A DNA stretch of 40,289 bases. Origin: Sphingomonadaceae bacterium (lineage in GTDB: Bacteria > Chloroflexota > UBA6077). The DNA lies in assembly GCA_050261575.1 (NCBI GenBank), contig JBLNDL010000060.1:1-40289 (forward strand). Reading direction: 5' to 3'. Each line of letters opens with the position of its first letter. Within the stretch, counting starts at the first letter, position 1. The translations under genes were made by a program, and so were the position numbers. Positions 15,989-35,711 of the stretch are shown here, piece after piece. The notes beneath the pieces were generated by a model that was not told where the DNA came from, searched no databases, and worked only from the letters and a program-made list of their open reading frames with translations.

Positions 15989-15992
15989 ACTA

Positions 15993-19488: not shown

Positions 19489-19902
19489 TCATGCCACCAC
19501 TGCCTGCTCCAACTCCTCCGCGATCTGCCCCACGTCGATGAGCCAGGCCAGTGCGAGCTGCCCGGGCTGGCGCAGGGTCGAGATCAACTCGTCCGCCCGC
19601 CGCTCGAAGACGTCCTTCCCGTCGCTGACGAGGAAGGTGTTCGCGAATGAGGCACCCTTCCAACGCCGCAGGTAGCGGATCACCTTGCGCAACGCCTGGA
19701 GGCTGATGCCCGCAGCGCGCAGCTCCCTGGCAACCCGCAATGCGATCAGATCCTGGAAGGAGTAGAGGCGCTGGGTTCCCTTGCCGGACGCCCGCGCCAC
19801 GCCGGGCACGACGAACCGGGACCTCGCCCAATAGTCGAGGGTGCGATAGGGCACCCCAGTCAGCTTAGCCGCGCGCCCGGCGCTGAAGACCTCGCCCATC
19901 AT
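19489..19902 (-). CDS. MerR-family HTH regulator (Rv1830/McdR-like)
   Basis: TGVPYRTLDYWARS...GKGTQRLYSFQDL...GISLQ...LVSDG. Confidence 0.85.
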   Translation of the reverse strand: MMGEVFSAGRAAKLTGVPYRTLDYWARSRFVVPGVARASGKGTQRLYSFQDLIALRVARELRAAGISLQALRKVIRYLRRWKGASFANTFLVSDGKDVFERRADELISTLRQPGQLALAWLIDVGQIAEELEQAVVA

Positions 19903-20265: not shown

Positions 20266-20408
20266 TAGATCCTGAGGCGCAGGCTCCTACGTCGTGGTTG
20301 CTCCAGGGCACCGTCCGTGGCGCGCCAGAAGGTATGTGGTCTCGATCTTGCACGAGAAGAACGACTCGGTGGCGACAGGCGTGGCCCGGCCCGCCAGTAA
20401 TGCACTTC

Positions 20409-20999
20409 TCATCCGTCGGTTGCGGGCAGGTCCTTCCTGGCTCGGGTGGATCGACGACGTTTCGGGGCAGGCTCTGGCGTCATTGCCGTTTGACTGACCG
20501 AAGGAGGTCTTCTGCCCACCTTAAGGGTAGGCACGTAGTAGTCCTGCCAGTTCATGCGACTGGTCATGGAAGAGACGAACTCCCGCAAGTATGGCCAGGT
20601 GTTCAGTGGGAGGTTGGATTTCCGGAATCTGGAGAAGAGCGCATCGGTCATGGGAAGCGACGATGAATAGTCAACTGCAAAGACGACTCTGATCTCCGCT
20701 GCCAGCCGAGCGCCATCTTCCTCCTCGTCCTCGTCAGCATCCCCTCGGTGACGGATGTCCACCTTCAGCCGATGTAAGGCGCGAAAGCCATCGGCAGTGG
20801 GCTCCCACTCCATGCCCTCAACCTTCACGCTGTTGCTGGATGGTACGGGGCGGACCGGACCATACCGATTAGTGACGCTCGCCTCCTTGAGCCAGACACG
20901 ATCGAGTTCAATCTGATGGATGAACTCGGCGTACTCAAGCGGAGAAAGCTCTGTCTCCATAGTCTTGTCAGTCTCTTCTACGATCTTCTCTTTGGGCAT
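20409..20999 (-). CDS. SecB-like chaperone (TAC component)
   Basis: IELDRV beta-strand, AEIRVVFAVDY, C-terminal FRKSNLPLNTWPYLREFVSSMTSRMNW..YYVPTL matching the SecB-like N.P..xPYxRE...T.R pattern; TAATG overlap with hicB stop. Confidence 0.8.
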   Translation of the reverse strand: MPKEKIVEETDKTMETELSPLEYAEFIHQIELDRVWLKEASVTNRYGPVRPVPSSNSVKVEGMEWEPTADGFRALHRLKVDIRHRGDADEDEEEDGARLAAEIRVVFAVDYSSSLPMTDALFSRFRKSNLPLNTWPYLREFVSSMTSRMNWQDYYVPTLKVGRRPPSVSQTAMTPEPAPKRRRSTRARKDLPATDG

Positions 21000-21496
21000 T
21001 ATACCGCCTTCGATTCCTCATCATCGTCTATTAGCCAACCTGTTGCCTTTGGCGCTTTCCACTCTCCTCGCACCCTGGGTCTGCTAACACCAGGTGACTT
21101 GTGGGATCGACTCGACTGCCTCCTGGTGCGAGCCTCGGCGCACCCTTTAGCCAACAGCGTCACCATCCACGTGTTGAGGCTCACGCCCTCATCCGCAGCT
21201 TGCTCAGCGAGCTCCTCATGAAGCGAAGGAGGCATTCTGAGTCTGATGGCTCCACTGTACTCTGATGGACGCGACGGCAAGGGTATTTCCAGGCCTTCTT
21301 CGTAGGCAGCCTCCATCCAGAGCTTGAAGGCATCTTTGACCATAGGAACCAATTCGTCGAGGCTCTCTACCTGAGTCAGGCAACCCGGCAGATCTGGGAA
21401 TCTGACCACGTAACCACCCTCGGGATCAGCGATCACGTCGAAGGGATACTCGAGCGAGAGATACTCATCAAGCGGTCGTCGCCGAGCAGCACACAT
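20999..21496 (-). CDS. hicB: HicB antitoxin with RHH domain and extra C-terminal tail (putative ChAD)
   Basis: YPFDVIADPEGGYVVRFPDLPGCLTQVES; YSGAIRLRMPPSLHEELAEQAADEGVSLN RHH; about 40-aa extension containing two Trp. Confidence 0.9.
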   Translation of the reverse strand: MCAARRRPLDEYLSLEYPFDVIADPEGGYVVRFPDLPGCLTQVESLDELVPMVKDAFKLWMEAAYEEGLEIPLPSRPSEYSGAIRLRMPPSLHEELAEQAADEGVSLNTWMVTLLAKGCAEARTRRQSSRSHKSPGVSRPRVRGEWKAPKATGWLIDDDEESKAV

Positions 21497-21497
21497 C

Positions 21498-21745
21498 CTA
21501 GTTCTCCTCTTCTAACCTCAGATGCTTCCTGATCTCCGCGAGATACACATCCCTCACCCAGCGTCCCTTGATCAACGGAACGGTAACCGGGAGCTCACCT
21601 TTCTTCGTGAACACCAGGTGGCTGGTTCCCTTCTGTGGCCGCTGTGTCCAACCGAAACCTTGCAGAAGAGAACATACGTCTCTGCAGGTCATCCTCGGCG
21701 GTCGCTTCAGGATCTCAGCAACAAGCTTCTGAAGATGTGTCGATC
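21498..21745 (-). CDS. hicA: HicA mRNA interferase toxin (start uncertain)
   Basis: LLQGFGW...KGTSHLVF.K.G...VTVP...VRDVYLAEI HicA fold with catalytic His; stop lies 1 nt before the hicB ATG. Confidence 0.85.
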
Positions 21746-21772
21746 TACCTCGCGGGGAGCAATATCGCAGGA

Positions 21773-21794
21773 ATGGTACCACCGATGGTACCAC
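21773..21794. promoter_or_regulatory. Tandem palindromic operators overlapping an extended -10 of the hicAB-secB promoter
   Basis: ATGGTACCAC at 21773-21782 and 21785-21794, each containing palindrome TGGTACCA; minus strand reads TG-G-TACCAT. Confidence 0.6.
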
Positions 21795-21904
21795 ACACTG
21801 AAGGCACCAAGGATAGTATCGGCAAAGGCGGAAGCTGTCAAGCAGGGCTTGGGTCATCCCTACGGTGAGGCATCAGTCCCATACCCTTGAGGAGAAGACA
21901 AGAA

Positions 21905-22269: not shown

Positions 22270-22326
22270 GGTGCCGGGGAGGGGACTCGAACCCCTACTC
22301 CCTTGCGGGAAGCAGATTTTTAAGTC
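22270..22326 (-). tRNA. tRNA-Leu(TAA) 3' fragment = prophage att site (not a complete tRNA)
   Basis: Minus strand GA-CTTAAAAA-TCTGC, variable arm TTCCC-GCAA-GGGAG, T arm AGGGG-TTCGAGT-CCCCT, acceptor CCCCGGC-A-CC; D arm and 5' half absent. Confidence 0.85.
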
Positions 22327-22451
22327 CATGGGTACCAAATCGGACGGTGTCGGAGAGTGTCAGAGGTAGTTCGGTCCTCGCCTGAGCCCCTATGTTTTCA
22401 CCCCCGATAAGAAGGACGTCTCCCCCCATCTGTCCGATGGTTTCCGGCCCT

Positions 22452-22472
22452 GTTGCTACATCCGTTGCTACA
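22452..22472. repeat. Direct repeat GTTGCTACA x2 (putative integrase arm-type sites)
   Basis: 22452-22460 and 22464-22472, about 125 bp inside att. Confidence 0.55.
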
Positions 22473-22562
22473 CGAGCTGCTGCGCTTGAGGCTTGGGCCC
22501 GCGCTTCCTCCTTCGGCACGACGGTCTTGCCATCGAAGTCGATCACCGGCAGGGGGGTCATT

Positions 22563-23030
22563 TCAGTCACAGCCTCTACCCCCCGGACCCAACAGCCGCC
22601 GTCCCTCGAACAGTTGATAGCCCGTCTCACCCCGATCGCCGGCGACGAGCTGGGGGAAGAACATCTCATCCAGGGAGATGAGGTCGAGCTTAACCATAGC
22701 GAGCTGCGCCTCGATCCAGTCCCGAAGGATACGCCAAGCCACACGCGCCGCGTGTTCGAAGGTCGTGTGCCGCGCCCCGAGACGCCGATCGCCGGCCTCG
22801 TACTTGTCTTTGAGGGCCTTCTGGACCCGCTCGATCCGCGCCGGAAGACGGAATTCCCGATCGCCCATTGGAGTCTCGGCGATGAAGGAGATCCCCGTCG
22901 GGACTCTCTTGACCCTGTCGTAGTCGATCGAGATGTTGGTGGCCCCGAACTCGACGAGAATCCTGGAGATCTCCCCGAGCGACTTCTCGGGGGCGATCTC
23001 CGTAGTGTAGTTGAGAATCACACTAGCCAT
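22563..23030 (-). CDS. Conserved phage hypothetical protein
   Basis: NYTT.I..EKSLGEI...FRLPA...ARVAWRILRDWIEAQLA pattern recalled from phage proteins; overlaps upstream ORF stop. Confidence 0.75.
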   Translation of the reverse strand: MASVILNYTTEIAPEKSLGEISRILVEFGATNISIDYDRVKRVPTGISFIAETPMGDREFRLPARIERVQKALKDKYEAGDRRLGARHTTFEHAARVAWRILRDWIEAQLAMVKLDLISLDEMFFPQLVAGDRGETGYQLFEGRRLLGPGGRGCD

Positions 23031-23319
23031 TGTCGGCCACTCCCACCTGGTATGGTTGATCGAGCTGCGTGCGCCATCCCATCTCCAGGGAGGCCCTCAG
23101 CGTCGGGTAGCTCTCGAAGACCGAGGCGAACTGATGGGCAAAGCGCTCGACTACGGCCCGTTGGCGCTCCGAGAGTCTCTGATGCCTCCATGCGAGCTGA
23201 AGCAGGGCAATCAGCGTGTAGAGATCCATCGGCGTAATGGTGAACCTGACCGAACCTTGGCCCGCCAGCATCTCCATCTCTCGGGCCATCGCCGCCACGA
23301 ACTCATTGTCTTCGGGCAT
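23023..23319 (-). CDS. Phage hypothetical protein
   Basis: Tightly packed in leftward operon, GAGGT RBS. Confidence 0.65.
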   Translation of the reverse strand: MPEDNEFVAAMAREMEMLAGQGSVRFTITPMDLYTLIALLQLAWRHQRLSERQRAVVERFAHQFASVFESYPTLRASLEMGWRTQLDQPYQVGVADNG

Positions 23320-23323
23320 TGGC

Positions 23324-23773
23324 TTACCTCAGGTTGTCGGGGTCGCTGAGCTCGATGCAGGCGACTCTGGACCCCCTGCCGCGCATTTCCGCGAGGAGCA
23401 TCTGCAGTGTGGTCCCCTCATCTTCGACGTCGTAGACCTCACGAGGATCGACGGAGATCTCGCCCTCGATGATCCTCGTCTTGCATCGGTCGTAACGACC
23501 GAGGAGCTCCTTGATGATCGGATCCGGGGGATTCGCTATGTCGAGGTTCTGGAGGACCTGGACAGCCTGGGCCTGGGCGAGCATGAGCTCGGTGGCCGTG
23601 ACGATCGCTGGCTTTTGGACCTTGCGCCGCTTGCCGTTCGCGATTGCAACCGGCGAGTAGCAGACCTGCGCCGGCTCGTCGCCGGCCTTGTAGATCCACA
23701 CCTCGATAATCCGTTGGACGTCGACCAGGACGTCCGGATTCGGCTGACAGACATACGTGGTTAGTCGCCTCAT
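23324..23773 (-). CDS. Phage hypothetical protein
   Basis: ATGA overlap with upstream ORF, GAGGAGG RBS. Confidence 0.65.
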   Translation of the reverse strand: MRRLTTYVCQPNPDVLVDVQRIIEVWIYKAGDEPAQVCYSPVAIANGKRRKVQKPAIVTATELMLAQAQAVQVLQNLDIANPPDPIIKELLGRYDRCKTRIIEGEISVDPREVYDVEDEGTTLQMLLAEMRGRGSRVACIELSDPDNLR

Positions 23774-24036
23774 GAAGCCTTCCTCCTCAACTCGGCTCGC
23801 CGAGCTCGTTGATAGCAGGTCATGCACAACGGTCCTATGCCGTAGGTCGTGGTCCTCACGACCGCAGTCCCCCCGCACTCTCGACAGCGGCCCTTGCCCT
23901 GTATCTGGACAGGAAGCTCGGTCGTTCCATACTTGCGGACTCTGAAGTAGTGCTTGACGCAATAGCCGAGACCGTAATGGGGATCATCACAGCCCTGTAC
24001 CGAGCATCCCCGGTCGTAAGCCTTCAACCGCCTCAC
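23770..24036 (-). CDS. Phage Cys/His zinc-finger protein
   Basis: CSVQGC..PHYGLGYCVKHY.R.RKYG plus CREC...CMTC. Confidence 0.65.
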   Translation of the reverse strand: MRRLKAYDRGCSVQGCDDPHYGLGYCVKHYFRVRKYGTTELPVQIQGKGRCRECGGTAVVRTTTYGIGPLCMTCYQRARRAELRRKAS

Positions 24037-24350
24037 CAGCCTCGTCTCTCCTCCTCCTGCATTTGCCGGATCAGCTCAGCTCCGGACTTGACCAGACCTA
24101 GAACCGTCTGTAGGTTGACCAGGGCGCCGGCGATCTGGTCGGTACCCTCCTTCCATGGGATCGACAGGATGATCCCCGCGGGAAGGGTCGTTTCGCCCGC
24201 CTTGAGGGCCTCATGCATGCGGTCCAGGTCGGCCAGATATCTCTCGAGCTTGCGGGCGAAGCGCTCCAGGTCGACAATCTCCTCATCGCGCCGCCGGCGG
24301 ACCTCCGCGGCTCCCCGTGTAGCCGTTCCCTGCGTGTACGCTACTGCCAC
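24033..24350 (-). CDS. Phage hypothetical coiled-coil protein
   Basis: GTG start overlapping the ARH end; stop overlaps the next start. Confidence 0.55.
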   Translation of the reverse strand: MAVAYTQGTATRGAAEVRRRRDEEIVDLERFARKLERYLADLDRMHEALKAGETTLPAGIILSIPWKEGTDQIAGALVNLQTVLGLVKSGAELIRQMQEEERRGW

Positions 24351-25369
24351 TTGCCGGCTTCCCACCCCTTCAGCCAGAGTTGGAACGCGAGGTCGCCGAT
24401 CGTCTCGATCGCCTCGACCTTGTTCCGCCAAGTGTCCGGAATCGCGTACAGACCGTGATAGGCCCCGAGGATCTGGCCAGCGATCGAGCCGGTTGAGTCG
24501 GAGTCGCCTGAGTGGTTGACGGCGACCAGGACCCCATCCCGGAACGATTGGGCCGTAAGGGCCGCGTAGAGTGCAATTGCCAAGGCCTCGTCGCCGACCC
24601 ATCCCCCGCCGAGCTCCTCGACCTTGGAGGGGGTCGGGGCGCCGGGCTGCTTCCAGAAACGGATCGCGCGTTCGACCTTGCCGAGAGTCTCCTCGTGGTT
24701 GGGCCATCTCTCGAGTTCTTCGCAGGCGGTGTTGATGGCCTGGAGCAGGGTATCCCTCTCGAGGATCCTCGAAAGGAGAAGGGCAAGGAAGCCGGCGGGA
24801 AGGTAGCCTCGCGGGTGTCCGTGGGTTATGGCCGCGGCCTCCGCGGCGATCGCGAAGACGTCGTGCCCCCAGGGTCCAAGGACGGCACAGGGGGCGACCC
24901 GCATGACCCCGCCGCAGCCGGCCGAGTCATTGATCGGCTTGGAGGTCCTTCCCCAACCGCCAGCGGCGAGGGCCGAGAGGCAGGTAGTACCGGGGACCCG
25001 GCGCGACGTGAAGGCCGGCTCGTCCATGAGGGTCGAGGCGCCCTTGTAGGGCTCGCCCATCTGGCCCTTGTACCACCGTTTGTAGGCGTCTCGGATCTCA
25101 GGTAGGACCTCGGCGGGCTCGCCGGCAAAGAGGATCCCCTCGAGGGTGAACAGGGTCATTTGGGTATCGTCGGTGATCGATCCCACGGTGCCGTAGGAAT
25201 AGGTCTGCGCCATGTCGGAGATCCCCGTCGGCCCGTAGAGCTCCCGGATCCTGGCGATGTTCAGGAACTCGATTGGAGCCCCCAGGGCATCACCGACGGC
25301 GCCGCCGACGATCATCCCCTCGACGCGGTCCATGTGGTACGGCAGTCGGCTAGAAAGTGGTAAACGCAT
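24341..25369 (-). CDS. ADP-ribosylglycohydrolase (ARH/DraG family)
   Basis: AVGDALGAPIEF, TDDTQMT, SAGCGGVMRVAP, ITHGHP, GDSDSTGSIAG metal-binding motifs all intact. Confidence 0.93.
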   Translation of the reverse strand: MRLPLSSRLPYHMDRVEGMIVGGAVGDALGAPIEFLNIARIRELYGPTGISDMAQTYSYGTVGSITDDTQMTLFTLEGILFAGEPAEVLPEIRDAYKRWYKGQMGEPYKGASTLMDEPAFTSRRVPGTTCLSALAAGGWGRTSKPINDSAGCGGVMRVAPCAVLGPWGHDVFAIAAEAAAITHGHPRGYLPAGFLALLLSRILERDTLLQAINTACEELERWPNHEETLGKVERAIRFWKQPGAPTPSKVEELGGGWVGDEALAIALYAALTAQSFRDGVLVAVNHSGDSDSTGSIAGQILGAYHGLYAIPDTWRNKVEAIETIGDLAFQLWLKGWEAGKWQ

Positions 25370-25742
25370 ACTTGATCCCATCCTCCCATCGTTGGGCGCT
25401 CTCTCGCTCCAGCTCGACGACCCTGCGGGCCATGGGAGCATCCGCGGACAGAACCGCCCGCTCGGCCTCTCCTACGGCCTCCAGGTAGTCGAAGAGCGCG
25501 ACCGTCGCCCCCCACACGGCGTTGCGGACCTGTCTCTTGGCGTCTCCGATCTTCTTCATCTCCGCCCCTTCGTCCTCGAACTCGTCGGGCCACTTGCCGG
25601 TTGTATCGGCCAGGTGGCGGGCCGCCTCGAGCTGGAAGCGGAGGTTGTTCTCGTTGGCCATCGCGTCCCGCCAGATGGCCAGTCGGTCAAGGAACTCCTT
25701 TCGGGCTTGGATCGTGTCTGTAGCCCGGCCAATCGCTCCCAT
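25350..25742 (-). CDS. Phage hypothetical protein
   Basis: Abuts both neighbours in the operon. Confidence 0.6.
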   Translation of the reverse strand: MGAIGRATDTIQARKEFLDRLAIWRDAMANENNLRFQLEAARHLADTTGKWPDEFEDEGAEMKKIGDAKRQVRNAVWGATVALFDYLEAVGEAERAVLSADAPMARRVVELERESAQRWEDGIKYAFTTF

Positions 25743-26177
25743 CTACTCGGTCTCCTTCCAGACGACCCCGTCCTCCGAACGGACGATGGTCTCGATCATG
25801 GTCCGATCGACTCTGGCTGGCGGGACATACTGGCGGGCCAGACCGACGACGAGCCAGAGGCGGCCGTCAGCCGCGGCGACCTTGGCCTCGAAGGCCTCGA
25901 GCTCCTCGGCCTCCGAGAGGCGATAGTAGTAATCGGCCTCGGGGTTGATCCGTAGGATGCCCTTCCTGGCCAGTCTCCGAAGGGCCTGGGCAAGCCGGCC
26001 CCCATCCTGGGAGGGCCCAGCGACCCGATAGGCCGGGACCCACTCGCCGGGGAGCTTGCCGGCGATCTTGCGAAACGCCTCAAGTGCCTCGTACTCAGTG
26101 GGGGTGAGAGTCGTACCCACAATCGCCTTTGCGAGGCGCTCCGTCTTCTTGAGTCTCGCCCTGAGTGCTGGATCCAT
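25743..26177 (-). CDS. Phage protein with possible winged-helix domain
   Basis: LTPTEYEALEAF...LAQALRRLARKGIL....YYYRLS; AAGGAGG RBS. Confidence 0.6.
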   Translation of the reverse strand: MDPALRARLKKTERLAKAIVGTTLTPTEYEALEAFRKIAGKLPGEWVPAYRVAGPSQDGGRLAQALRRLARKGILRINPEADYYYRLSEAEELEAFEAKVAAADGRLWLVVGLARQYVPPARVDRTMIETIVRSEDGVVWKETE

Positions 26178-26257
26178 CGTTTCCTCCTTCCCGTCCATTC
26201 CTCCTGATTGATCGATGGAGAGGCGCCTCCCGGCGCTCCTCCCAATGGGGCGGGAGA

Positions 26258-26443
26258 TCAAGATCGCGCGGTTCGAAGGATCCCGACGACCAGAAGAACC
26301 GCCATTCCGATCGGGATCCAGTTAGGAACCAGGCCGAAACCGACTGCGGCCAAAAGGGCGCCGCCGGCGATCCCCATGGTGTAGGCGGCCCAGTACTCGA
26401 GCCGTTGCTTCGTTGTCATGAGAGAGCCTCCGCCTTTCTCCAT
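26258..26443 (-). CDS. Small two-TM phage membrane protein
   Basis: Two hydrophobic stretches; GAGGAG RBS. Confidence 0.55.
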   Translation of the reverse strand: MEKGGGSLMTTKQRLEYWAAYTMGIAGGALLAAVGFGLVPNWIPIGMAVLLVVGILRTARS

Positions 26444-26470
26444 TCTCCTCGGCCTTGGGAGCCGGTCGAC

Positions 26471-26496
26471 CTCGCACCGTCTATCGACGGTGCGAG
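26471..26496. repeat. Perfect 11-bp intergenic hairpin
   Basis: CTCGCACCGTC-TATC-GACGGTGCGAG. Confidence 0.7.
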
Positions 26497-26517
26497 CGAT
26501 GGAGCCGGAAGGGCCGA

Positions 26518-27051
26518 CTAGTTGGGGATGGCGACGTCCAGGAGGGAACCCGGAGACAGAGCCTCGCCACAGTCACCGCAGTAGCAGCGGCCTTCCCCGT
26601 CCACGAACGCCGCGGGGAAAGCCATCGTCTCTTCGCAGTGGGTACAGGCGACGACCATCGGCAGTCCGAGCCTGCGGAAGACCTCCTCGTCGATCCTCTC
26701 GCCGAGCTCGATCCCTGCCTCCGCAGCACGCTCCCTCAGGACGTTCATTCCCCATCGAAAGGGTGTCTCGGTATCGGCCTCGGCCGCGGCCTGTCCTGCC
26801 TCAAGGGCCTTAGCGTGCCGGTCTTGGAGCGCGGCGTCGGCGGCCTTGAGGCCGATCTCGAGGCAGGCTCGGCAGAGGACCGCGTTATGGTTGGCGTCGT
26901 ACTGATCGGGATCGCCCTGGCCAGCCACCAGGTCATAGGTCGCGGTGAGCTCCTCCTCGATGGGCTCTTGAAGATGCCGGAGAATCAACTGATGGATCTC
27001 GTTGTCCTCGGGCCCAACGGCCCGGCCGCAGTGGAAGCATCGGTAAGTCAT
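26518..27051 (-). CDS. Phage protein with four CxxC motifs
   Basis: CFHC, CRAC, CTHC, CGDC. Confidence 0.65.
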   Translation of the reverse strand: MTYRCFHCGRAVGPEDNEIHQLILRHLQEPIEEELTATYDLVAGQGDPDQYDANHNAVLCRACLEIGLKAADAALQDRHAKALEAGQAAAEADTETPFRWGMNVLRERAAEAGIELGERIDEEVFRRLGLPMVVACTHCEETMAFPAAFVDGEGRCYCGDCGEALSPGSLLDVAIPN

Positions 27052-27084
27052 TGCTGTTCCGTCCTTTCCTGTCGTCTGCTACGG

Positions 27085-27285
27085 TCATCGATAGTCGATC
27101 AGCCCATGCTCTTGGCGCAGCCTGGCGTCTCGGAGTGCTTCGGGATCGCGCTCGAACAGGTCCCGAGCTTCCTTGGCGTCCCTCTCCCCCTTATAGTGTC
27201 CGAGGACCACTGAGCGACCGCCACGAAGTTCGCCGACTACCCAGCAGGTCTCGGAAACCCGCATGTCGTACAGCTCCGGTTCCAA
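27085..27285 (-). CDS. Phage hypothetical protein
   Basis: TTG start with AAGGAGG RBS. Confidence 0.55.
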   Translation of the reverse strand: MEPELYDMRVSETCWVVGELRGGRSVVLGHYKGERDAKEARDLFERDPEALRDARLRQEHGLIDYR

Positions 27286-27307
27286 CGATCACCCTCCTTC
27301 GGTCGTT

Positions 27308-27703
27308 CTAGCTGGCCACCGCCGCCGGCTGTCTCTCCGCGTAACCGTTGACCACGAGCCAGCGGGCCTCCTGGGTGACCCGGGTCAGAGGGGTCTCCAC
27401 GACCGAGCTCCAGGCGGCATAGGAAAACTCTGCGACCCCCCGGAGACTGTTCATCCCCACGCGATCGACGCGGTAGAGGGTGACCTCGCTGGGGTTGGCC
27501 ACCGCGAAGACGTCGCCGATCCTCACCGGAACCAGGGGCGAGCCGTCCTCGGCGAACGCCCAGGGCTTCCGCTCGTAGCCGTTGGCGTCGGCGACGACCA
27601 CCGCGATCGGCTGATCGGCGACGAGCTGCCGGGGTCGGATGACGGGTACGCAGTGCACGATCTCGATCTTGAGGCTCTCGGTCCGCGCGATGCTGGTGGC
27701 CAT
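27308..27703 (-). CDS. Phage hypothetical protein
   Basis: ATG with TAAGGAGGT RBS. Confidence 0.65.
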   Translation of the reverse strand: MATSIARTESLKIEIVHCVPVIRPRQLVADQPIAVVVADANGYERKPWAFAEDGSPLVPVRIGDVFAVANPSEVTLYRVDRVGMNSLRGVAEFSYAAWSSVVETPLTRVTQEARWLVVNGYAERQPAAVAS

Positions 27704-27716
27704 CAGTGGTACCTCC

Positions 27717-28235
27717 TTACTGCTGGCGGTAATCGATGGTCCTGTCCTTCTTGGCCGCGTTGCATGAAAGGCACAACGGCTGGATGTTGGCGATGGTGTG
27801 TGGGCCACCCTGAGACAGCGGCATGACGTGATCAGGGACTAGCCGGCCGTGGGAACCGCATGCGAGACACTTGTTGCCGTATTTCGCCTTGAGCGCAGTC
27901 CATTCCTCTTCAGTCCGTCCAGGCCCCTGAGCCTCCAAGTTGCGACGAGTAACGCGCCGGGCCTGACACCTGGCCCTAAGCTTCGGGTCTGATGCATATT
28001 GCTGACTTCTCCGCGCTGACTCCCTGATCTGGTTCTTCGGAATGGAGCGCCACTTGCGCTTGTTGGCCTTGCCCCTCTCCAGCTGCTTCGCCCAGTACTC
28101 AGAATTGGTCTTGCGTTCAGCGTTGTATGCCTTCATGCACTCCCTGCAATAGGACATGAGACCGTCAGGATGAGAACTGCACTTGCCAAATGCCTCGTCC
28201 TCTTTGGCCTCGCCACACCTGGAGCAGCGCCTCAC
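27717..28235 (-). CDS. HNH endonuclease with N-terminal zinc ribbon
   Basis: CSRC...CREC; CLAC....DHVMPLSQGG.H...NIQPLCLSCN..K. Confidence 0.88.
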   Translation of the reverse strand: MRRCSRCGEAKEDEAFGKCSSHPDGLMSYCRECMKAYNAERKTNSEYWAKQLERGKANKRKWRSIPKNQIRESARRSQQYASDPKLRARCQARRVTRRNLEAQGPGRTEEEWTALKAKYGNKCLACGSHGRLVPDHVMPLSQGGPHTIANIQPLCLSCNAAKKDRTIDYRQQ

Positions 28236-28271
28236 CTTTCCTCCCCGTCTGTATCAGTATGACACTGTGAC

Positions 28272-28300
28272 ACTATATCAAGCCCCTGAGAAGATTGCAA
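28272..28300 (-). promoter_or_regulatory. Leftward phage early promoter
   Basis: Minus strand TTGCAA-N17-TATAGT; TGACAC repeats at the start site. Confidence 0.7.
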
Positions 28301-28308
28301 TACCCCTG

Positions 28309-28336
28309 TTGCGGAACGACGCAGTGATGCTATAAT
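28309..28336 (+). promoter_or_regulatory. Rightward promoter giving a leaderless HTH mRNA
   Basis: TTGCGG-N16-TATAAT with extended TG; ATG 7 nt downstream. Confidence 0.7.
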
Positions 28337-28343
28337 GCGGGCC

Positions 28344-28550
28344 ATGAGCGAAGAGAGCGCCGAACTGGTAACAATCGAGGAGCTGGAGCGCCGCCTTGGC
28401 GTCCCCCGGCAGATCATCTACCGCCGCATGGGGAAACACCCCAATGACGCGCTGCCATACGTCGATGTCACCAAGCCCTACCACAAGCGCAGGCAGTACC
28501 GCTTCAACGTGAAGGCAGTTGCCAAGTATCTGGGCATTGAGCCGCGCTAA
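28344..28550 (+). CDS. Small HTH DNA-binding protein (Xis/AlpA/MerR-like)
   Basis: LVTIEELERRLGVPRQIIYR...LPY...RQYRFNVKAVAKYL. Confidence 0.75.
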   Translation: MSEESAELVTIEELERRLGVPRQIIYRRMGKHPNDALPYVDVTKPYHKRRQYRFNVKAVAKYLGIEPR

Positions 28551-28729
28551 TCCCCTAAACCCACCTCTTCAGCCTCTCAGGGCCAGCACCAACGCTGGCG
28601 CACTATTCCGCTTGGTCTTTGGTCAAACGGGAAAAGCCTGTGCAGAGTCCCGGTTGCCCGGGCGACTGACGGAGCGTATTGGATTGGTGCAGGGAACTCA
28701 GAGGAGGAGCGGTAGGGAGGATCGGCCGC

Positions 28730-28774
28730 AAAGAGAAAGCGGCCTCCGCGCCCACGTGGATACGCGGAGGCCGC
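28730..28774 (-). terminator. Intrinsic terminator for leftward transcription
   Basis: 12-bp perfect stem GCGGCCTCCGCG / CGCGGAGGCCGC followed by TTTCTCTTT on the minus strand. Confidence 0.7.
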
Positions 28775-28849
28775 CTCTCCCCACGGGGGAGGCCATGAAA
28801 GGAACAGCGACGCAAAGATAGCAGGACGCTCTGCCGACAGTCAAGGTAT

Positions 28850-29576
28850 TGTACTGGTTCGCTACCTCCGTGACACATCCTCCTCTCTTGGGTGTTGCTG
28901 GTACCAGTTGTCAAGGAACTGCTTGGGGGTGAGGTAGCCGAGGGCCTGGTGGGGTCTGACGGTGTTGTAGACCTTCTGTCCTTCCAGTATCACCTGGAGC
29001 TTCTCTTTGCCCCAGCGGGGATACTCCTCTCGCACCTTCCTGACGGCTTCGACCTGTTCGGCTGACCAGGTCCGTACACGGCGCTTCTTAGGAATGCTTG
29101 GACGATCCTCCAAGGTAGACAGATCCCTCGGGTTGTATCGGCGCTTCCACCGATAGAAGGTCTGGCGGCTGATCCCGAAGTGGCGGCAGGTCAGGCTCAC
29201 GTTGTGATCGTGGCTCTCGTAGTAGGAGAACCACTTCAGACGGGCCTTGGCCTGCATCGAGGGGGATGGGATCGACTTCTTGGCTAGATGGATCATGGCA
29301 GGGGTAGTGTTGGTGACGACCTTCATCGCCCTCTCCCCTGTCCAAGGGAACTCTTCGGTGCTAGACTTACCCACGGAGAGCCTCCCCCTTCGGATAGTGG
29401 ATTGGAGTACCTCCATCCTAAGGGCTGGCTCTCCACTTGCGCTACTGCCCAAGTCCGCCAACAGCAACGCTCCCGCGCTCCGCTCCGCTTCGCTTGGGCC
29501 TTAACGACAAGACTCTCCTTGTCTCTTCTCCCTTCCACTACTCCCTATGTGTCACGAACCTTTCTGAACGTACACA
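28850..29576 (-). mobile_element. IS481-family element, internally deleted
   Basis: TGT...ACA ends, imperfect IRs TGTnnnnGTTC-N8/9-CGTGACACAT, 5-bp GGTAT duplication at 28845-28849 and 29577-29581. Confidence 0.8.
28862..29326 (-). pseudogene. IS481 transposase lacking the DDE core
   Basis: HTH (TCRHFGISRQTFYRWKRRY) and PRWGKEKL joined in frame to C-terminal YNTVRPHQALGYLTP. Confidence 0.8.
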
Positions 29577-29820
29577 GGTATTGATGGCAGAGAAGGAGAG
29601 AGGGCCGAGCTTGTGGGGCTCGACCCTCCCCAGAAACCGGGGATCCACTCGGGGTCCCCTGGACCCTCTCGACGAGAGGATCCCCGCCGCGTACCGGCTC
29701 CCGCAGGATCACCCGGCAGACCAACGCATCCACTCAAGAATAAGTTTCCGAGGGGAAAAACCGCCCCCCTCGGTTATCCCCCTCGGCGCCAGGAACAGGG
29801 TGTAGGAGGTGCAGGCAGTG

Positions 29821-29852
29821 AAGGCGCCTCCCTTATAGCAGAGAGGCGCCTT
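29821..29852. terminator. Hairpin downstream of the endolysin
   Basis: AAGGCGCCTC / GAGGCGCCTT 10-bp perfect stem. Confidence 0.45.
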
Positions 29853-29920
29853 GAAGAACAAGGATACTGTGTCAGATTCAGCCCCTCGACACTGAGCCTC
29901 AGATCAGCCCCGGGGATTTG

Positions 29921-30703
29921 TCAGGCTGCTTTGAGGCTGGACCTGATGCGGTCTCGCAGCTCATCCGTCCTGCGGTCCCCCCGTGGGTACACGTCCGTCT
30001 TCCCATCCCTGATCCCAGGGTCGATCTCGCTGTGGGCCAGCAGCTCCAGCGGCATGTCCGGGTAGGCCACCAGCAGCCGATGCTTGATCCACCAGACGGC
30101 CGCCCTCACCTGCTTCTCAGTCACCGTGTACTCGTCGGTGGGCTGTGCGAACTCGATCCCGATCCAGTGCTCGCTCCACCACTCTCGGGCGTGGTAGCCC
30201 CACCTGTCCAGGGGCAGGTGCTCGGAGATCTCATCCTCGCCGACCGTCAGGTGCCAGCCGAGGTACTGCCCGCCACAACCAGCCCTGGCGTACGCCCGCG
30301 TGCCGTGGAACTCCAGGAAGCGGCTCTGCCGCCGTCCGCTCCTGGTACCATGCAAGATGATGCCCCTGGGAGTTGCACTGATCCGGCCGGCGATGGCCGC
30401 AGCAGGCACCGGATCGGAGTAGACCGTGGGGCGGTAGCCGTCGAGCTCCCAGTCGAAGCGCTCGCTGTTCAGCCGCTCATACACCAGCCCGCCGGGTCCG
30501 CGTAGCCAGGTCCGATACCCGTCGGTGAAGGCGGTCCAGTTGTCGGCCTTGCGCCAGACGAACAGGCCCTTCGTGGTGCGTTGCTGGCCGTCACCGTTGG
30601 CCGCGTGATGCTCGTTCTCCAACGGGTACCCCACCAGGTCACGCCCTAAGGCGTTCGCCAGCTCCAGGAAGCCGAGCTGATAGCGGTATCGAAGGTCGAT
30701 CAT
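29921..30703 (-). CDS. Endolysin: N-terminal putative envelope-binding domain + Amidase_2
   Basis: IILHGT, WHLTV, GYHA, IGIEF, LAHSEI..KTD amidase motifs; N-terminal GYPLENE...QQRTTKGLFVWRKADNWTAFTDGYRTW. Confidence 0.82.
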   Translation of the reverse strand: MIDLRYRYQLGFLELANALGRDLVGYPLENEHHAANGDGQQRTTKGLFVWRKADNWTAFTDGYRTWLRGPGGLVYERLNSERFDWELDGYRPTVYSDPVPAAAIAGRISATPRGIILHGTRSGRRQSRFLEFHGTRAYARAGCGGQYLGWHLTVGEDEISEHLPLDRWGYHAREWWSEHWIGIEFAQPTDEYTVTEKQVRAAVWWIKHRLLVAYPDMPLELLAHSEIDPGIRDGKTDVYPRGDRRTDELRDRIRSSLKAA

Positions 30704-31314
30704 GCCTCGCTCCTTTCAGCATCCATGAGGGCTGAGTGCATCGTGATGGCGCCCCCCAAATTCGCAGGAACGAAGGGGTGCCCTAGGAACACCTCCCTGT
30801 ATGCCATCCACATCTGCCGCGCCGCTACGATCGGAGATAGTCTTCCGCACCCAGTGCCCAAGCCGGGGATCGCGACGCTCTCAATAGAAGGCAAGTCCTC
30901 GTGATCTCTCACCGCCGACAGGATCGCTTTCATCGCCAGGTAGGCGTTCACCGTGCCCCGAATGTCCATAGGTACTCGCATCGTGGGTGCGGAGATGAGC
31001 CAGGGCACCCTTCCGTCACCTGTGGGAATAATCAGGGCTTCACCCACTAACAGCTCACCCAAGGGCCTTGACTGGATTGCTTGCTTAAGCCTCGACTGTA
31101 CTCCCCAGCCAAACCGCATGGACAGCGCATAGTCCAGCCCCCCATCCATGAACCCGAACGAGTTCGCGGGGCTGACAACGGCATCGGCATCTACGTGGCA
31201 TATGTCGCCCGCGAGAACTTGAACATCAGGGCTCTCGTCGAACAGCCGATGCCACTCAGCGCCTAGCCTCTGGTCGCTTTCCAGATGGACGAGAAGTATC
31301 TTCAAGCGGCGCAT
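30700..31314 (-). CDS. Macrodomain protein (Appr-1''-p / ADP-ribose processing)
   Basis: GDI...DAVVSPANSFGFMDGGLD, APTMRVP, IPGLGTGCG; ATGA overlap with the endolysin. Confidence 0.92.
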   Translation of the reverse strand: MRRLKILLVHLESDQRLGAEWHRLFDESPDVQVLAGDICHVDADAVVSPANSFGFMDGGLDYALSMRFGWGVQSRLKQAIQSRPLGELLVGEALIIPTGDGRVPWLISAPTMRVPMDIRGTVNAYLAMKAILSAVRDHEDLPSIESVAIPGLGTGCGRLSPIVAARQMWMAYREVFLGHPFVPANLGGAITMHSALMDAERSEA

Positions 31315-31424
31315 GCTGTGGTTCCCCCGCAGGTCATGATCATGTTCTCTCCTTTTCTCCGCTTCCCAGGTTGTGGAAGCTGTGGTATAACGACGGCGCC
31401 ATTTCGTCATGTTAGGGGAAGAAC

Positions 31425-32912
31425 TTGCTTGCCCGTCTGATCGCCCTCGGTAGACACCACCTGTTCGGCATCTGCATCGTAACAGGCCTCGCAGCGGGAA
31501 CTTATCTCCCCTGGATCCACAACTACTTCGTAGGTGACTCGTGGTGGATGGTCGAAAGGATAGGTGAGCCTGGATGGAGCTTGCTGGACCTTCTGCCGTT
31601 CAGGCGGCTGCAACAGCCACTCAACTCCACCAACTACTACGCACCCGTCAATATCACAGTGCTATGGTTCGCGTTCAGACTGGGAGGGTTTGCCCCGGAG
31701 CGATATCACCTGTTGATGATCGCCTTCCATGTCGGGGCGTCTATCGCCCTCTACTCCACGACCTGCTCGCTCACCGGAAGCCGCCTCAAAGCCATCGCGG
31801 CGGGATCCATGTTCGCTGTTCACTTCGCACTTACCGAGGCAGTGGGCTGGTACGGAGCCATGACTCACCCCGCAGCGGGGTTCTTTGGTGCGGCATCGTT
31901 GGCTCTTTTCGCACGCTTCCCGGCGACTGGAGGAAGGCTCTGGTTCGCCCTCTCCCTCGCTAGTCTGTCGATGGCGTCGCTGACACAGGTGACTGGATTG
32001 TCGTGGTTCGGCATCCTGCTGCTCGCAGACCTAATGCTTGCTGGCAAGCACAGACGGGTTGAACGGGACGTGAAGCGAGCAGCCATCCTCGTCGCATTGG
32101 GCCTGGGGATCGTCGCCCTGCAGATCCCGACCGTTACCCTCGACGGTGTTGGCGGCTACCGCTATCAGTTGGGACCCTGGGTGCTCCACAACCTCTTCTA
32201 CTACCCGATCTCCACCTTCATGCCGAACCTGGAGTTGCCCGCCTACATGCTGGTGAATGATCTGCTCGTTGCAGCCACCAGAGAGGATGCAAGACTTCAA
32301 CTGCTGGGCATGACCACTGCCTTTAACATGCTGCTGGCCTCCGGCGTGGTAGTGGTGGCCGTCCTGCTGATGTGGGCCTCCGGAAAGTCTCTTCTTCGCT
32401 TCTGCCTGCTCGCCTTTGCTGCCGGAATGGCGCCCTTCGTCCTGATGAATGGCCAGGGCTACCGATACCTGTATGTCCCGCTCATGTTTTTCTCTCTCGC
32501 GGTCTCCGATATGATCGTCGACCACTACAACCGCTTGAGATATCAGTCAGGCATGGCGGCCATCGCGGTGCTTGCCATTCTCCCGCTCTTCGTGAGCCTG
32601 TCGTTTATGGAATCACAACGACAGATGTTCTGGTGGCGGGAGGCTGGATACGTCACGCACAAGACGCTGTCCCAGCTGCGCGAGTTGCAGCCCGAGGTCC
32701 CGAACGGGGCAATCCTCGCCTTCATTGGCTTGCCCGACACGCTGCCGAACAGCAACGTCCAGGTTTGGCGCAACGGGATCGAGAGTGCTGCCCGGATGCT
32801 CTATGAGAACCCGACCTTGAAGGTGGAGAGCCTCGCCCAGGACGACCAGCCCACTGACGGCAGAATCGTCTTCACGTGGCAAGACTGGCAGTTGCGCAAA
32901 CAGAGCCCCTAG
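31425..32912 (+). CDS. Polytopic membrane protein, GT-C glycosyltransferase-like (moron)
   Basis: GD after TM1, YYAPV, FAVH..LTEAVGW, RYLYVP, about 11 TM; opposite strand to phage genes; TGgTATAAC at 31383-31391. Confidence 0.65.
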   Translation: MLARLIALGRHHLFGICIVTGLAAGTYLPWIHNYFVGDSWWMVERIGEPGWSLLDLLPFRRLQQPLNSTNYYAPVNITVLWFAFRLGGFAPERYHLLMIAFHVGASIALYSTTCSLTGSRLKAIAAGSMFAVHFALTEAVGWYGAMTHPAAGFFGAASLALFARFPATGGRLWFALSLASLSMASLTQVTGLSWFGILLLADLMLAGKHRRVERDVKRAAILVALGLGIVALQIPTVTLDGVGGYRYQLGPWVLHNLFYYPISTFMPNLELPAYMLVNDLLVAATREDARLQLLGMTTAFNMLLASGVVVVAVLLMWASGKSLLRFCLLAFAAGMAPFVLMNGQGYRYLYVPLMFFSLAVSDMIVDHYNRLRYQSGMAAIAVLAILPLFVSLSFMESQRQMFWWREAGYVTHKTLSQLRELQPEVPNGAILAFIGLPDTLPNSNVQVWRNGIESAARMLYENPTLKVESLAQDDQPTDGRIVFTWQDWQLRKQSP

Positions 32913-32921
32913 GTGCGACGT

Positions 32922-33263
32922 CTAGGTGGTCGCAGGAGGCTTCTCCGGCCCCTCTGGAGCATCCTGCTCCAACTCCGCCCGCAAGCGGAGGAACTCATCC
33001 AGCCTCAGGTCATATTGCATCCGCTTGATCGCCATGCGCAACGCTCTCAGGACCTTCCGGCGATCGAGGGACGCCGTCCAGTCCACCCAGACGTTCGCCG
33101 GGGCCTCAGGCGTCCCGAGCAGGCAGTCCCAGACCTTGATCTGGACGCTCTGCTGCACGCAGAATTCGGGGTGACCAGCCACTTCGTGGTGAGCCACGAA
33201 GGTCTTCTCCAGACGGGCCAAGTCTCGTTGCAGGATCATCAGCCGCTTCTGCTTATCCATCAT
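32922..33263 (-). CDS. Phage hypothetical protein
   Basis: Follows 33265-33516 in the operon. Confidence 0.55.
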   Translation of the reverse strand: MMDKQKRLMILQRDLARLEKTFVAHHEVAGHPEFCVQQSVQIKVWDCLLGTPEAPANVWVDWTASLDRRKVLRALRMAIKRMQYDLRLDEFLRLRAELEQDAPEGPEKPPATT

Positions 33264-33264
33264 C

Positions 33265-33516
33265 CTACTCCGCCCTGGTAATGGTCTGGACGCAGCCACA
33301 CCTCCTGATGAGGTCCATGAGGATGTCTTTCTCCGGTATGTTCAGGGCAGTGACCTTGGCCGCTAGCTCTCGGAGCGATACGATGATGTTCTCGCGCCAC
33401 TGGACAAAGTCCCGATACGCGCGATCCTTGGCTTCCACCTCAGCCTGCAGTTGAAGGAAGAGAGCTCTATCCACAAGGATCTGCTCTGGCTGCGTTACTT
33501 GTGCCTCTTGGCTCAT
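33265..33516 (-). CDS. Phage coiled-coil hypothetical protein (possible fibre chaperone)
   Basis: GGAGG RBS, directly after the tail fibre gene. Confidence 0.6.
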   Translation of the reverse strand: MSQEAQVTQPEQILVDRALFLQLQAEVEAKDRAYRDFVQWRENIIVSLRELAAKVTALNIPEKDILMDLIRRCGCVQTITRAE

Positions 33517-33527
33517 GGCTCCCTCCG

Positions 33528-34829
33528 TTAATCTCTAACGAGGAATGCAACCTCGTGGTATGGCGGGTTGTTTGAGACGTTGCCGATGCTGGTGTAGCTC
33601 ACACTTGTTGTGGTGTGGGTGTGCCCTACTACAGCCGGGCCATAGCCGCAGTTGCCGCAATGGATCCACGTTGGGTTTCCTGAGTGGGTCAGGCTGTGTG
33701 TATGCCCGCTGGCCGAGTGAGTGTGAGTGTCCTGCCCAAACGGACCACCAGGTACCGTGACGGCGTCTGGGACTGCTCTCAGGAACTTCCTCCTTGTGTC
33801 CGGCTTGGAGGCCCCATACCCCGGTGGCGCTCCGTTGGCCCATGCCCCGCCATCGCAATGGCTCCAGCCGGTTGGCATCTCAGCGAGTGGATGTGCCCAA
33901 GCCCCTACAAGGCCCCTAGGCGCCTTCAGGTTGGCGGCGAGGTCATCCGCATCGACAATCCCTGAACTATAGGCTGCCTGGTTGATGCCGTGACCGACGA
34001 AGGTAATCCAATGAACGGTGATGTTGGGTGGTTGGTGATCCGTCCTCGACGAGTCGAAGGCCGAAGCGTTCAGGGTGTGCACATGCCCCGCCGCGGCTGG
34101 CCAGGTGCCACCGCAACCGGTATCCGGTCCCATCGGAGGTCCGTCCGTTCCGTGGGTATGGGCGCAGTTGTGGACGTGATCCACAGCCCCGCCAGTCGTC
34201 CCTGGCTCGGTCGCCGTATTGGGGATGCCACGAAGGTACTTGCCCAACAGGTTTGGGGTCGTGACCCCGTTGTAGGTACCCCCATCGCACTTGGCAAACC
34301 CTGATGGAATGCCATCTGGCGAATGGCCCCACATGAAGATCATCTTCCTCGGAAGAAAGCAACTCGCTGCCAGCTCTCGTAGCGTGAGCAGCCCGCGTGA
34401 CTGCCCCTTCAGGGTGTAGACGATCGGCTTGTAGGTGAGATGCACCGGCAGATGGCTTACCGTGCTCAACGTGTCGGTGTTGCTGCTTACGGGATGGACG
34501 TGATCGCACCGAGAGAACGTCGAATTGTAATCCGAGCACTGTTCCGCCTCATGGCATGATCCCTGGGTATGTGTATGATTGTGGCTCGGGACCGAATGGT
34601 TGTGCTGGGTTGCGCCACCCATGGCGCCGGGGTTGTCTCCCGTTGCCGCCACTCCCTTGGCGAAACGGTCGAGCCAACCAGGGCGGGTGTAGGCCGGATC
34701 GTTGACCGACGCTGTGCCGTTCGCGAGTTCCCATCCGTCCGGGATCTCGGTCCCAAACAGTATCGCCCCGATACCCTGGGGGATAGGCAACTCTCTCAAA
34801 TCCCTGTGTGTCAGTATCGCTCTCGCCAT
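33528..34829 (-). CDS. Tail fibre / receptor-binding protein with three collar+HxH modules
   Basis: Three repeats of IPxGW/F..C(D/N)G...F/YLRG...GG...HxH..HxH...HxH...PP. Confidence 0.72.
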   Translation of the reverse strand: MARAILTHRDLRELPIPQGIGAILFGTEIPDGWELANGTASVNDPAYTRPGWLDRFAKGVAATGDNPGAMGGATQHNHSVPSHNHTHTQGSCHEAEQCSDYNSTFSRCDHVHPVSSNTDTLSTVSHLPVHLTYKPIVYTLKGQSRGLLTLRELAASCFLPRKMIFMWGHSPDGIPSGFAKCDGGTYNGVTTPNLLGKYLRGIPNTATEPGTTGGAVDHVHNCAHTHGTDGPPMGPDTGCGGTWPAAAGHVHTLNASAFDSSRTDHQPPNITVHWITFVGHGINQAAYSSGIVDADDLAANLKAPRGLVGAWAHPLAEMPTGWSHCDGGAWANGAPPGYGASKPDTRRKFLRAVPDAVTVPGGPFGQDTHTHSASGHTHSLTHSGNPTWIHCGNCGYGPAVVGHTHTTTSVSYTSIGNVSNNPPYHEVAFLVRD

Positions 34830-34838
34830 CTCCCCCTC

Positions 34839-35705: not shown

Positions 35706-35711
35706 GAGGTA

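Follow-up and report, generated by a model that had tools for sequence, protein, structure and literature searches.

A probable HicAB-type toxin-antitoxin-chaperone operon beside a tRNA-Leu prophage in a soil bacterium of the Chloroflexota

Toxin-antitoxin-chaperone (TAC) modules count among the clearest examples of bacterial immune sensors that detect a phage protein by competition for a chaperone, and in the cited portions of the literature only those of the HigBA, MqsRA and CmdTA types are tied to defence. A contig from a soil bacterium of the Chloroflexota (JBLNDL010000060.1 of assembly GCA_050261575.1; positions 1 to 40,289, henceforth referred to as the window) carries a hicA toxin gene, a hicB antitoxin gene and a third open reading frame (ORF) that resembles secB, located beside, but outside, a prophage. 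Do these three genes form a TAC of the HicAB type, and would such a system serve phage defence? The analysis presented here supports with good confidence a genuine TAC with a chaperone-dependent antitoxin. It is likewise likely that the locus is a HicAB-type tripartite TAC operon that works by the same tail-guarding mechanism as the characterised TACs. A role in phage defence is plausible by analogy with those systems.

The genes are read from the minus strand in the order hicA, hicB and the secB-like gene (ORF3), and the three frames lie head to tail and are translationally coupled (Table 1). The hicA stop codon TAG (21498-21500) is separated by a single base, G 21497, from the hicB start codon ATG (21494-21496), giving TAG-G-ATG, and the latter is preceded by GAGGAG. 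The last A of the hicB stop codon TAA (20999-21001) is at the same time the first base of the ORF3 start codon ATG (20997-20999), giving TAATG and a 1-nt overlap. A preliminary description of this DNA, prepared from the letters alone, had reported this coupling and a GC content below that of the host genes, and both features are present. Bulk GC of the cassette is 0.570 (bin 20401-21000) and 0.565 (bin 21001-21600) versus mostly 0.64–0.71 in the host bins (1-20400), two of which are at 0.59–0.60. GC at third codon positions (GC3) is 0.59–0.68 in the three cassette genes compared to 0.86–0.88 in three sampled host genes and 0.80–0.88 in three sampled prophage genes, with some other prophage ORFs at 0.68–0.76. 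The cassette is AT-shifted and its codon usage is foreign. The right end at 21800 given in the same description corresponds to no defined gene start, the start of hicA being ambiguous.

ORF3 alone matched no Pfam family, SecB included, and no NCBIfam family, and its sole sequence match in the PDB was the TAC chaperone Rv1957 of M. tuberculosis at E 1.3. Five homologues with 39–42% identity were obtained by a word-based search, and a profile of those five retrieved 2292 proteins at E<=1e-3, including 534 at <=1e-10, from 1.84 billion representatives. The AlphaFold2 model of ORF3, built on a 6-row alignment with a predicted local distance difference test (pLDDT) score of 70.7, contains four long strands and two helices. 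The preliminary description had called the third ORF SecB-like and proposed a Foldseek comparison with SecB; in that comparison, SecB and SecB-like entries occupied all of ranks 1–19, and E was 6e-3 or worse from rank 20 onward. The top entry, 5mtw_C, is Rv1957 bound to the chaperone-addiction (ChAD) peptide of its antitoxin (E 5.8e-7, TMt 0.70). Alignment with VIA-align gave Z 11.7 to 5mtw_C (root mean square deviation 3.5, 128 residues) and Z 10.5–10.9 to the SecB proteins of E. coli and H. influenzae. A 116-row family profile, comprising the window protein, the five first matches and 110 of the best 150, reached Rv1957 (5mtw_C) at 6.6e-8 and H. influenzae SecB (1fx3_A) at 0.018. Pfam SecB was matched by 23 of the 116 family members, the best at 7.5e-6.

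An acidic insertion at residues 84–99 of ORF3 (pI 4.1) is absent from the five first homologues and less acidic in a 51%-identical relative; that the loop and the basic HicB tail are matched in charge is speculation. Separately, sequencing run X2 contains a low-depth 133-nt contig over 20453-20525 (depth 4 versus 14.5 for the main form) with six differences in the part encoding the disordered C-terminal tail of the chaperone, five of which fall at first or second codon positions by our own count.

The antitoxin assignment was obtained from Pfam (Table 1) and from phmmer, which matched HicB to E. coli HicB 6hpb_B (3.9e-8) and 6u0i_A (2e-8) through the N-domain only; the PDB matches span residues 15–86 and no further. 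In the AlphaFold2 model (8-row alignment, mean pLDDT 68), a b-b-b-a N-domain is followed by a strand (residues 80–87) and two helices (90–103 and 107–132), while residues 132–165 have pLDDT <50 and no secondary structure. Because Foldseek with the whole model returned nothing at E<=0.001, its top rows being HicB entries at E ~0.04, the assignment leans on Pfam and phmmer. The unexplained tail of ~40 residues that had been pointed out after the ribbon-helix-helix (RHH) domain does exist, and the segment quoted for it corresponds to residues 123–165 of the 165-residue product. The tail as delimited here is basic at first (residues 119–153, pI 11.9), carries W146 and W154, continues with an acidic DDDEE stretch and ends in Lys-Ala-Val.

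Comparison with other antitoxins suggests that such a tail goes with the chaperone. In an alignment of 20 HicBs, four cyanobacterial proteins of 125–126 residues stop right after the RHH domain. The HicB of the window and all other chaperone-linked HicBs (15/15) extend ~27–80 residues past it, although one (P0010) looks truncated. A word-based search gave 120 HicB relatives, the window included, many of them from short contigs where the gene context is not known; in 91 of them 26 or more residues follow the RHH domain, and in 8 no more than 10. Two aliphatic residues close the protein in 26 of the 91 long tails versus none of the 8 short ones. Within the tail type of the window, W146 and W154 are invariant in all three sequences, which by analogy is only suggestive of chaperone contacts. 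Many chaperone-linked tails (L003, L005, L048, L050, L051, P0030, P0031, P0043 and P0046) were seen by eye to combine a helical DAQARVERRL-like start with an R-Y-[HQ]-[VF]-T-G-[VL]-P-like motif, and this element is probably the chaperone-binding element of those relatives. With a SecB fold in ORF3, HicA and HicB both above their Pfam thresholds and a tail that chaperone-linked HicBs carry and the two-gene HicBs compared lack, the earlier identification of the module as a HicA-HicB-SecB TAC was upheld.

The toxin was recognised from several comparisons. The hicA frame is open from 21857 over 119 codons and keeps the whole Pfam domain together with an invariant histidine. This residue, His80, is conserved in 8/8 aligned HicAs (that of the window and seven from related cassettes), and we take it to be the catalytic histidine of HicA. 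A profile of the same eight sequences matched the solved HicA 5yrz_B at E 0.0037 across the G-S-H motif, and the PHROG family phrog_353, annotated as a toxin, was matched at 3.3e-5. The window's own genome also contains a second HicA-like gene (contig C74 of G000, ~1630-2250; L047 1128-1740) scoring 26.8 bits, where a 116-residue ORF precedes rather than follows the toxin gene and no SecB-like gene is nearby.

Related cassettes repeat the same arrangement. One genome per species was scanned with a 6-row chaperone alignment, which yielded 34 loci, and the two ORFs upstream of the chaperone were searched against Pfam in 29 of these; the five left aside are L002, truncated by its edge, and L023, L028, L031 and L032, which have no clear ORF or neighbour. 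HicB is the immediate upstream neighbour in 13/29 loci (L003-L009, L013-L016, L019 and L022), and the next ORF passes Pfam HicA (E<=1e-3) in 7 of those 13. A HigA-like helix-turn-helix (HTH) antitoxin occupies the position in 10/29 loci, 7 of them with a Gp49/HigB-like toxin, and MqsA in 1/29. In 2/29 the ORF chosen put a Gp49 match in the antitoxin slot, and 3/29 have no antitoxin in the adjacent slot, two of these giving no match and L035 giving an HTH match one ORF further up. The HicB-linked loci include seven of the eight closest to the window by tblastn E value (L003-L009, 38–43% identity); the eighth, L002, is the best match (44%) and is the one cut at its edge. L003-L009 read HicA-HicB-chaperone with HicBs of 169–199 residues, except that the ORF in the hicA slot of L004 missed Pfam, and they come from Thermomicrobiales or Dehalococcoidia metagenome-assembled genomes and from Thermalbibacter longus. 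The order hicA-hicB-chaperone was also seen by eye in a genome of the same class (G048, with 4-nt overlaps) and in metagenome loci L050-L052. A maximum-likelihood tree of 29 chaperones places the window in a group of 10 rows with support 86/86, below the starred level, and all nine rows of that group with a readable neighbour, the window's included, are HicB-linked.

The region upstream of the toxin domain contains a putative operator. The motif GTGGTACCAT occurs there as two exact direct repeats, 12 nt apart from start to start, and has no other exact copy in the 40-kb window; allowing <=1 mismatch raises the number of matches to 5 versus 0.86 expected, which 0/100 shuffles reached. Equivalent paired repeats precede hicA in L005, L008, L009, L048, L003 and L051/L052. 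As read by eye from the sequences, those of L005, L008, L048 and L003 sit within a TTGAC-17-TAC(C/T)(A/G)T promoter, and no such -35 was seen around the repeats of L009. A consensus scan of 20100-22400 in the window found 3 promoter-like sites versus 0.6 expected, among them the site listed in Table 1, which is separate from the repeats and upstream of them. The paired repeats would serve as the operator of the RHH antitoxin HicB. In the relatives printed, hicA starts ~11–17 nt past the second repeat, and the stretch from repeats to coding sequence is ~19 nt longer in the window.

By analogy with the TACs of M. tuberculosis and E. coli, a cycle can be proposed for these parts. The N-domain of HicB would bind and block HicA, and its RHH domain would repress the operon at the paired repeats. 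The tail would destabilise HicB, with the terminal Ala-Val possibly acting as a ClpX-type degron, and a tetramer of the SecB-like protein would hold the tail through W146, W154 and the basic residues around them, perhaps aided by the acidic loop, so that HicB is protected. Unfolded clients competing for the chaperone would draw it off, after which HicB would be degraded, HicA would cleave mRNA and growth would stop.

A number of observations in toxin, tail and surroundings count against a working TAC of this kind. The HicA_toxin score (27.9 bits over residues 59–112 of the 119-residue ORF; 28.9 bits in a scan of the own genome) barely clears the cut-off of 27. A further point, overlooked in the preliminary description, is that hicA has no canonical start at the homologous position. 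Residues 42–55 (LQKLVAEILKRPPR) align with the N-termini of the HicAs of relatives, the in-frame alignment spanning residues 39–55 of the window, and a start upstream of 21692 is therefore favoured. The codon aligned with the relatives' ATG or GTG start is TCG (21741-21743), placed 4 nt after GAGG. Contigs of three runs (X1-X3, one study) give identical sequence there, so TCG cannot be put down to one faulty assembly; run X4 has no contig across 21723-21775. The other in-frame candidates are unusual: GTG 21782 and GTG 21794 fall within the operator-like repeats, ATG 21857 is found upstream of the promoter-like -35, and ATG 21692 stands right at the beginning of the Pfam domain and is abutted by GAGG without a spacer. 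With the canonical start missing and the alternatives unusual, translation of the toxin may therefore be weak or lost. Damage to the 5′ end of hicA does occur in this family, since L052 (1222-1507), compared with the near-identical metagenome cassette L051 (690-975), has lost 2 nt from a GC run near the beginning of the gene; the deletion breaks the toxin frame and leaves hicB and the chaperone gene intact. The tail is also atypical. Its type is shared with only two database proteins (87% and 65% identical overall), and it contains neither the helical segment nor the RY[HQ][VF]TG[VL]P-like motif of many relatives. One could accordingly suppose that the cassette is decaying, its toxin start lost and its toxin poorly translated or not at all, with an antitoxin-chaperone (AC) remnant of little or no activity. 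The missing start with GAGG still ahead, the independent deletion in L052 and the toxin-less AC systems described in the cited part of an earlier paper (PMC3581621) all fit this supposition. The long open hicA frame with its intact domain and histidine, the in-frame GTG and ATG codons, the intact and coupled hicB and chaperone genes and the exact operator repeats do not, and decay is considered improbable. Full expression of the toxin from this hicA, given the missing canonical start, is still somewhat favoured. That ORF3 is the general export chaperone SecB, lying by chance beside an ordinary hicAB pair, could draw on the fold similarity to E. coli and H. influenzae SecB noted above. It was rejected as highly improbable: ORF3 overlaps the hicB stop, misses Pfam SecB and matches a TAC chaperone best both in structure and by profile; none of the 38 other genomes of the order yielded it, its GC3 is foreign, and its relatives are almost always preceded by an antitoxin. 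Nor is it the housekeeping SecB, because the own genome, 100% complete by marker genes in 103 contigs, has no PF02556 match.

Taking the locus as a functional TAC, the remaining alternatives concern what it senses. The natural competing client may be a newly made phage structural protein, making the cassette an abortive-infection sensor; this is a reasonable hypothesis by analogy, held tentatively. In its favour are the defence roles of HigBAC, CmdTAC and MqsRAC (the three TACs with an established biological role in the literature cited, as far as the cited portions go, all act in phage defence), the adjoining phage integration site, which is compatible with defence, and matches of the SecB-like protein to two PHROG families at ~1e-10, from which it follows that relatives of the chaperone travel in phages. 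None of these points is decisive. That the tail might mimic a phage structural protein, as had been suggested before, is a tentative idea too. Among the adverse points, tblastn of HicB residues 117–165 against the whole own genome found only itself, other matches having E>1 and many running across stop codons; this is a weak test of mimicry that misses short linear motifs, and the head and major tail genes of the prophage lie outside the window. PADLOC made no confident defence call, with only weak matches of ORF3 to PD-T4-9_C (E 8.2e-4 and 0.026) and none for HicA or HicB. The flanks of related cassettes (34 ORFs at 8 loci) hold mostly metabolic or unknown genes, vary by locus and include no defence islands. 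The doubtful start of the toxin gene weighs against the idea as well. The rival to the phage-sensor idea is a functional TAC that senses no phage and acts as a stress-responsive or selfish addiction cassette, in which proteotoxic or export stress titrates the chaperone or the cassette stabilises itself and its neighbourhood. This too is a tentative proposition. It accords with the original TAC model, in the cited part of which aggregated or exported proteins hijack the chaperone (PMC8165232), and with the ordinary metabolic genes in 8/8 flanks inspected, and the lack of a confident PADLOC call agrees with it as well. The chaperone is present in 1/39 genomes of the order, the window's own, and in 3/66 of the class; given this sporadic presence, the foreign codon usage and the varying flanks, the three genes form a self-contained, horizontally moving cassette, and a compact, AT-shifted module of this sort fits a selfish mobile element. 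The most ambitious version of the phage-sensor idea is unlikely. It would make the locus a working HicA-armed abortive-infection sensor and the first HicAB-type TAC with a defence role, with the tail (basic stretch, two Trp eight residues apart, acidic patch) and the matching acidic loop forming a recognition mode distinct from that of the RY-x-x-TG-type tails of relatives, the chaperone tuned to a structural protein of siphoviruses such as the neighbouring prophage and the lost start limiting toxin dosage rather than marking decay.

The genomic setting was described earlier as a tRNA-adjacent islet next to a prophage. The prophage is confirmed: the siphovirus-like tail and lysis end of one begins at ~22330, integrated 400 nt from the cassette, and includes a tape-measure protein, Dit, a Gp37-like tail protein, an amidase, HNH endonucleases and an ADP-ribosylglycohydrolase. 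The tRNA is present as a 3′ fragment of 57 nt of tRNA-Leu(UAA), the attR remnant of the prophage; no intact tRNA was found in the window by ARAGORN (0) or Rfam (0). The fragment also matches the 3′ part of intact tRNA-Leu in two genomes of the same family (G004 and G003). Contig C57 of the own genome carries the intact tRNA-Leu, which has host genes on one side and, abutting it on the other, genes for a tyrosine integrase, a cI-like repressor, an M78 peptidase and Gp157. In the prophage-free arrangement of G004, a phosphoesterase gene (77% identical to the C57 flank) is followed by the intact tRNA-Leu, 478 nt and the MerR block. The attR fragment, the integrase junction on C57 and the prophage-free order together indicate that the prophage integrated into tRNA-Leu. 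A single prophage is split over two contigs, with its attR end in the window (22270-40289) and its integrase end at ~30000-36418 of C57.

As for the islet, the spacer between tRNA and MerR measures 2026 nt here, where it holds the cassette, versus 478 nt in G004, with no shared sequence; no flanking repeats bound the cassette, and a 21-nt tRNA pattern allowing <=3 mismatches matched once. The G004 spacer (L037 1022-1501) carries a different small ORF in place of the cassette, so the spot between tRNA-Leu and MerR is variable between genera. No second att-like repeat was found: a 17/22 match at 19927-19948 lies in sequence conserved with G004 and was taken as chance. Adjacency to a tRNA is not a trait of the family, since no tRNA gene was found beside 15 related loci. 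Positions 1-19900 of the window are ordinary host genes (H+-pyrophosphatase, oligopeptidases F and transporters), the MerR-family regulator being the last, and the MerR region is syntenic and 71–72% DNA-identical in G004 and G003.

Table 1 Coordinates of the cassette and its neighbouring features in the window (G000 is the genome of the window; C57 is one of its contigs).
Feature	Position	Strand	Details
SecB-like TAC chaperone (ORF3)	20409-20999	-	196 aa; SecB core ~aa 20-160, acidic loop aa 84-99, basic disordered C-tail aa 161-196
hicB, whole gene	20999-21496	-	165 aa
HicB tail, candidate ChAD region	21002..21142	-	aa 119-165 (~47 residues after RHH domain)
HicB before tail (N-domain and RHH)	21143..21496	-	Pfam HicB_lk_antitox 2.6e-10 (aa 17-76); HicB 6.1e-12 (aa 67-115)
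HicA toxin domain	21498..21692	-	64 aa from internal ATG 21692; stop TAG 21498-21500
Open frame upstream of HicA domain	21693..21857	-	in-frame start candidates GTG 21782, GTG 21794 and ATG 21857, besides ATG 21692
Two exact direct repeats GTGGTACCAT, putative HicB (RHH) operator	21773-21782 and 21785-21794	-	12 nt start to start
Promoter-like site TTGACA-17-TACTAT	21813..21841	-	consensus scan, 10/12 positions; a consensus match, not proof of function
MerR-family regulator	19489..19902	-	Pfam MerR_1 1.1e-13; first conserved host gene on the other side
3′ 57 nt of tRNA-Leu(UAA), attR remnant of prophage	22270..22326	-	98% identical to the 3′ part of the intact tRNA-Leu(taa) at G000:C57:36333-36418
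Prophage, tail and lysis end	22327..40289	.	siphovirus-like; runs off contig

Several genes of the prophage are recorded here in their own right. The ADP-ribosylglycohydrolase (24341-25441, minus strand; Pfam 9.3e-72, phrog_6572) and a macro-domain protein (30700-31410, minus strand; Pfam 1.2e-10, phrog_2613) could possibly remove ADP-ribose marks and thereby act in counter-defence against ADP-ribosylating host systems. A transposase fragment with HTH_32/HTH_28 and a short rve_3 end (28862-29467, minus strand) lies in a low-GC stretch. On the opposite strand of the tail region, a 495-residue ORF (31425-32912, plus strand) weakly matches the 4TM C-terminal region of protein O-mannosyltransferase (5.4e-4) and is possibly a lysogenic-conversion membrane protein.

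The finding is the correct annotation of a kind of module already described, and not a new mechanism. Its value lies in the family: together with its Thermomicrobiales or Chloroflexota relatives, the locus forms a compact group of HicAB-type TACs in which the operator is readable, the tails vary and the toxin start shows natural lesions, and this group could be used to ask how tail type and chaperone co-vary. A list from 2012–13 already gave HicB as one of the three canonical antitoxin families of TACs, each of which has an RHH domain (PMC3581621, cited portion). The main texts of a 2024 survey of HicA gene contexts and of a 2024 HicAB review make no mention of SecB or a chaperone.

The preliminary description held that HicAB-type TACs are predicted but little studied. 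This has to be corrected, as the HicAB-SecB(TA) system of Methylomonas methanica MC09 (Mmet-TAC) was shown by Bordes et al. in 2016 to be chaperone-dependent in E. coli; in the part of that work cited here, its toxin-antitoxin pair is controlled only with its own chaperone and the ChAD regions are swappable (PMC5105189). Likened by description only, Mmet-TAC and the window both combine HicA as toxin with a HicB extended at its C-terminus by a ChAD region, a candidate one in the window, and with a SecB-like chaperone. Mmet-TAC differs in its proteobacterial host, the closest relatives of the window cassette being labelled Thermomicrobiales or Chloroflexota. No phage role for Mmet-TAC and no phage-defence test of any HicAB-type TAC was found among the open-access papers and preprints searched. 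Classical two-gene HicAB systems (E. coli K-12, 6hpb; Y. pestis HicA3B3, 4p78) have in common with the window the HicA domain, the HicB N-domain and the order of hicA before hicB, but have no C-terminal tail and no chaperone gene.

In HigBAC and CmdTAC of E. coli, a SecB-like chaperone guards a disordered antitoxin tail until it is contested by a phage structural protein, lambda gpV or the T4 major capsid protein, whereupon the antitoxin is degraded and the toxin freed (10.1101/2024.02.24.581848 and PMC11618068, cited portions); the preliminary description drew on this mechanism. These systems carry other toxin-antitoxin warheads, and their defence function and triggers are experimental, whereas the present cassette is known from its sequence; the sole link found by search is the weak PADLOC match of ORF3 to PD-T4-9_C at E 8.2e-4. 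A further parallel is HigB1-HigA1-SecB(TA) of M. tuberculosis (Rv1955-1957), whose chaperone Rv1957 is the best structural (Z 11.7) and profile (6.6e-8) match of ORF3. Its toxin is a RelE-like RNase and its antitoxin HigA1 an HTH protein, in contrast to the dsRBD-like RNase HicA and the RHH protein HicB here, and the two chaperones are 13% identical. In the cited parts of the work on that system, the ChAD region contacts the chaperone through W108, R110 and Y114, SecB prefers stretches rich in aromatic and basic residues (PMC6377645), and the last two residues of HigA1, Val-Ala, form a ClpX degron within the ChAD region (PMC8165232). W108/Y114, R110 and the Val-Ala end of HigA1 are paralleled in the window by W146 and W154, an Arg/Lys stretch and the Ala-Val end of HicB.

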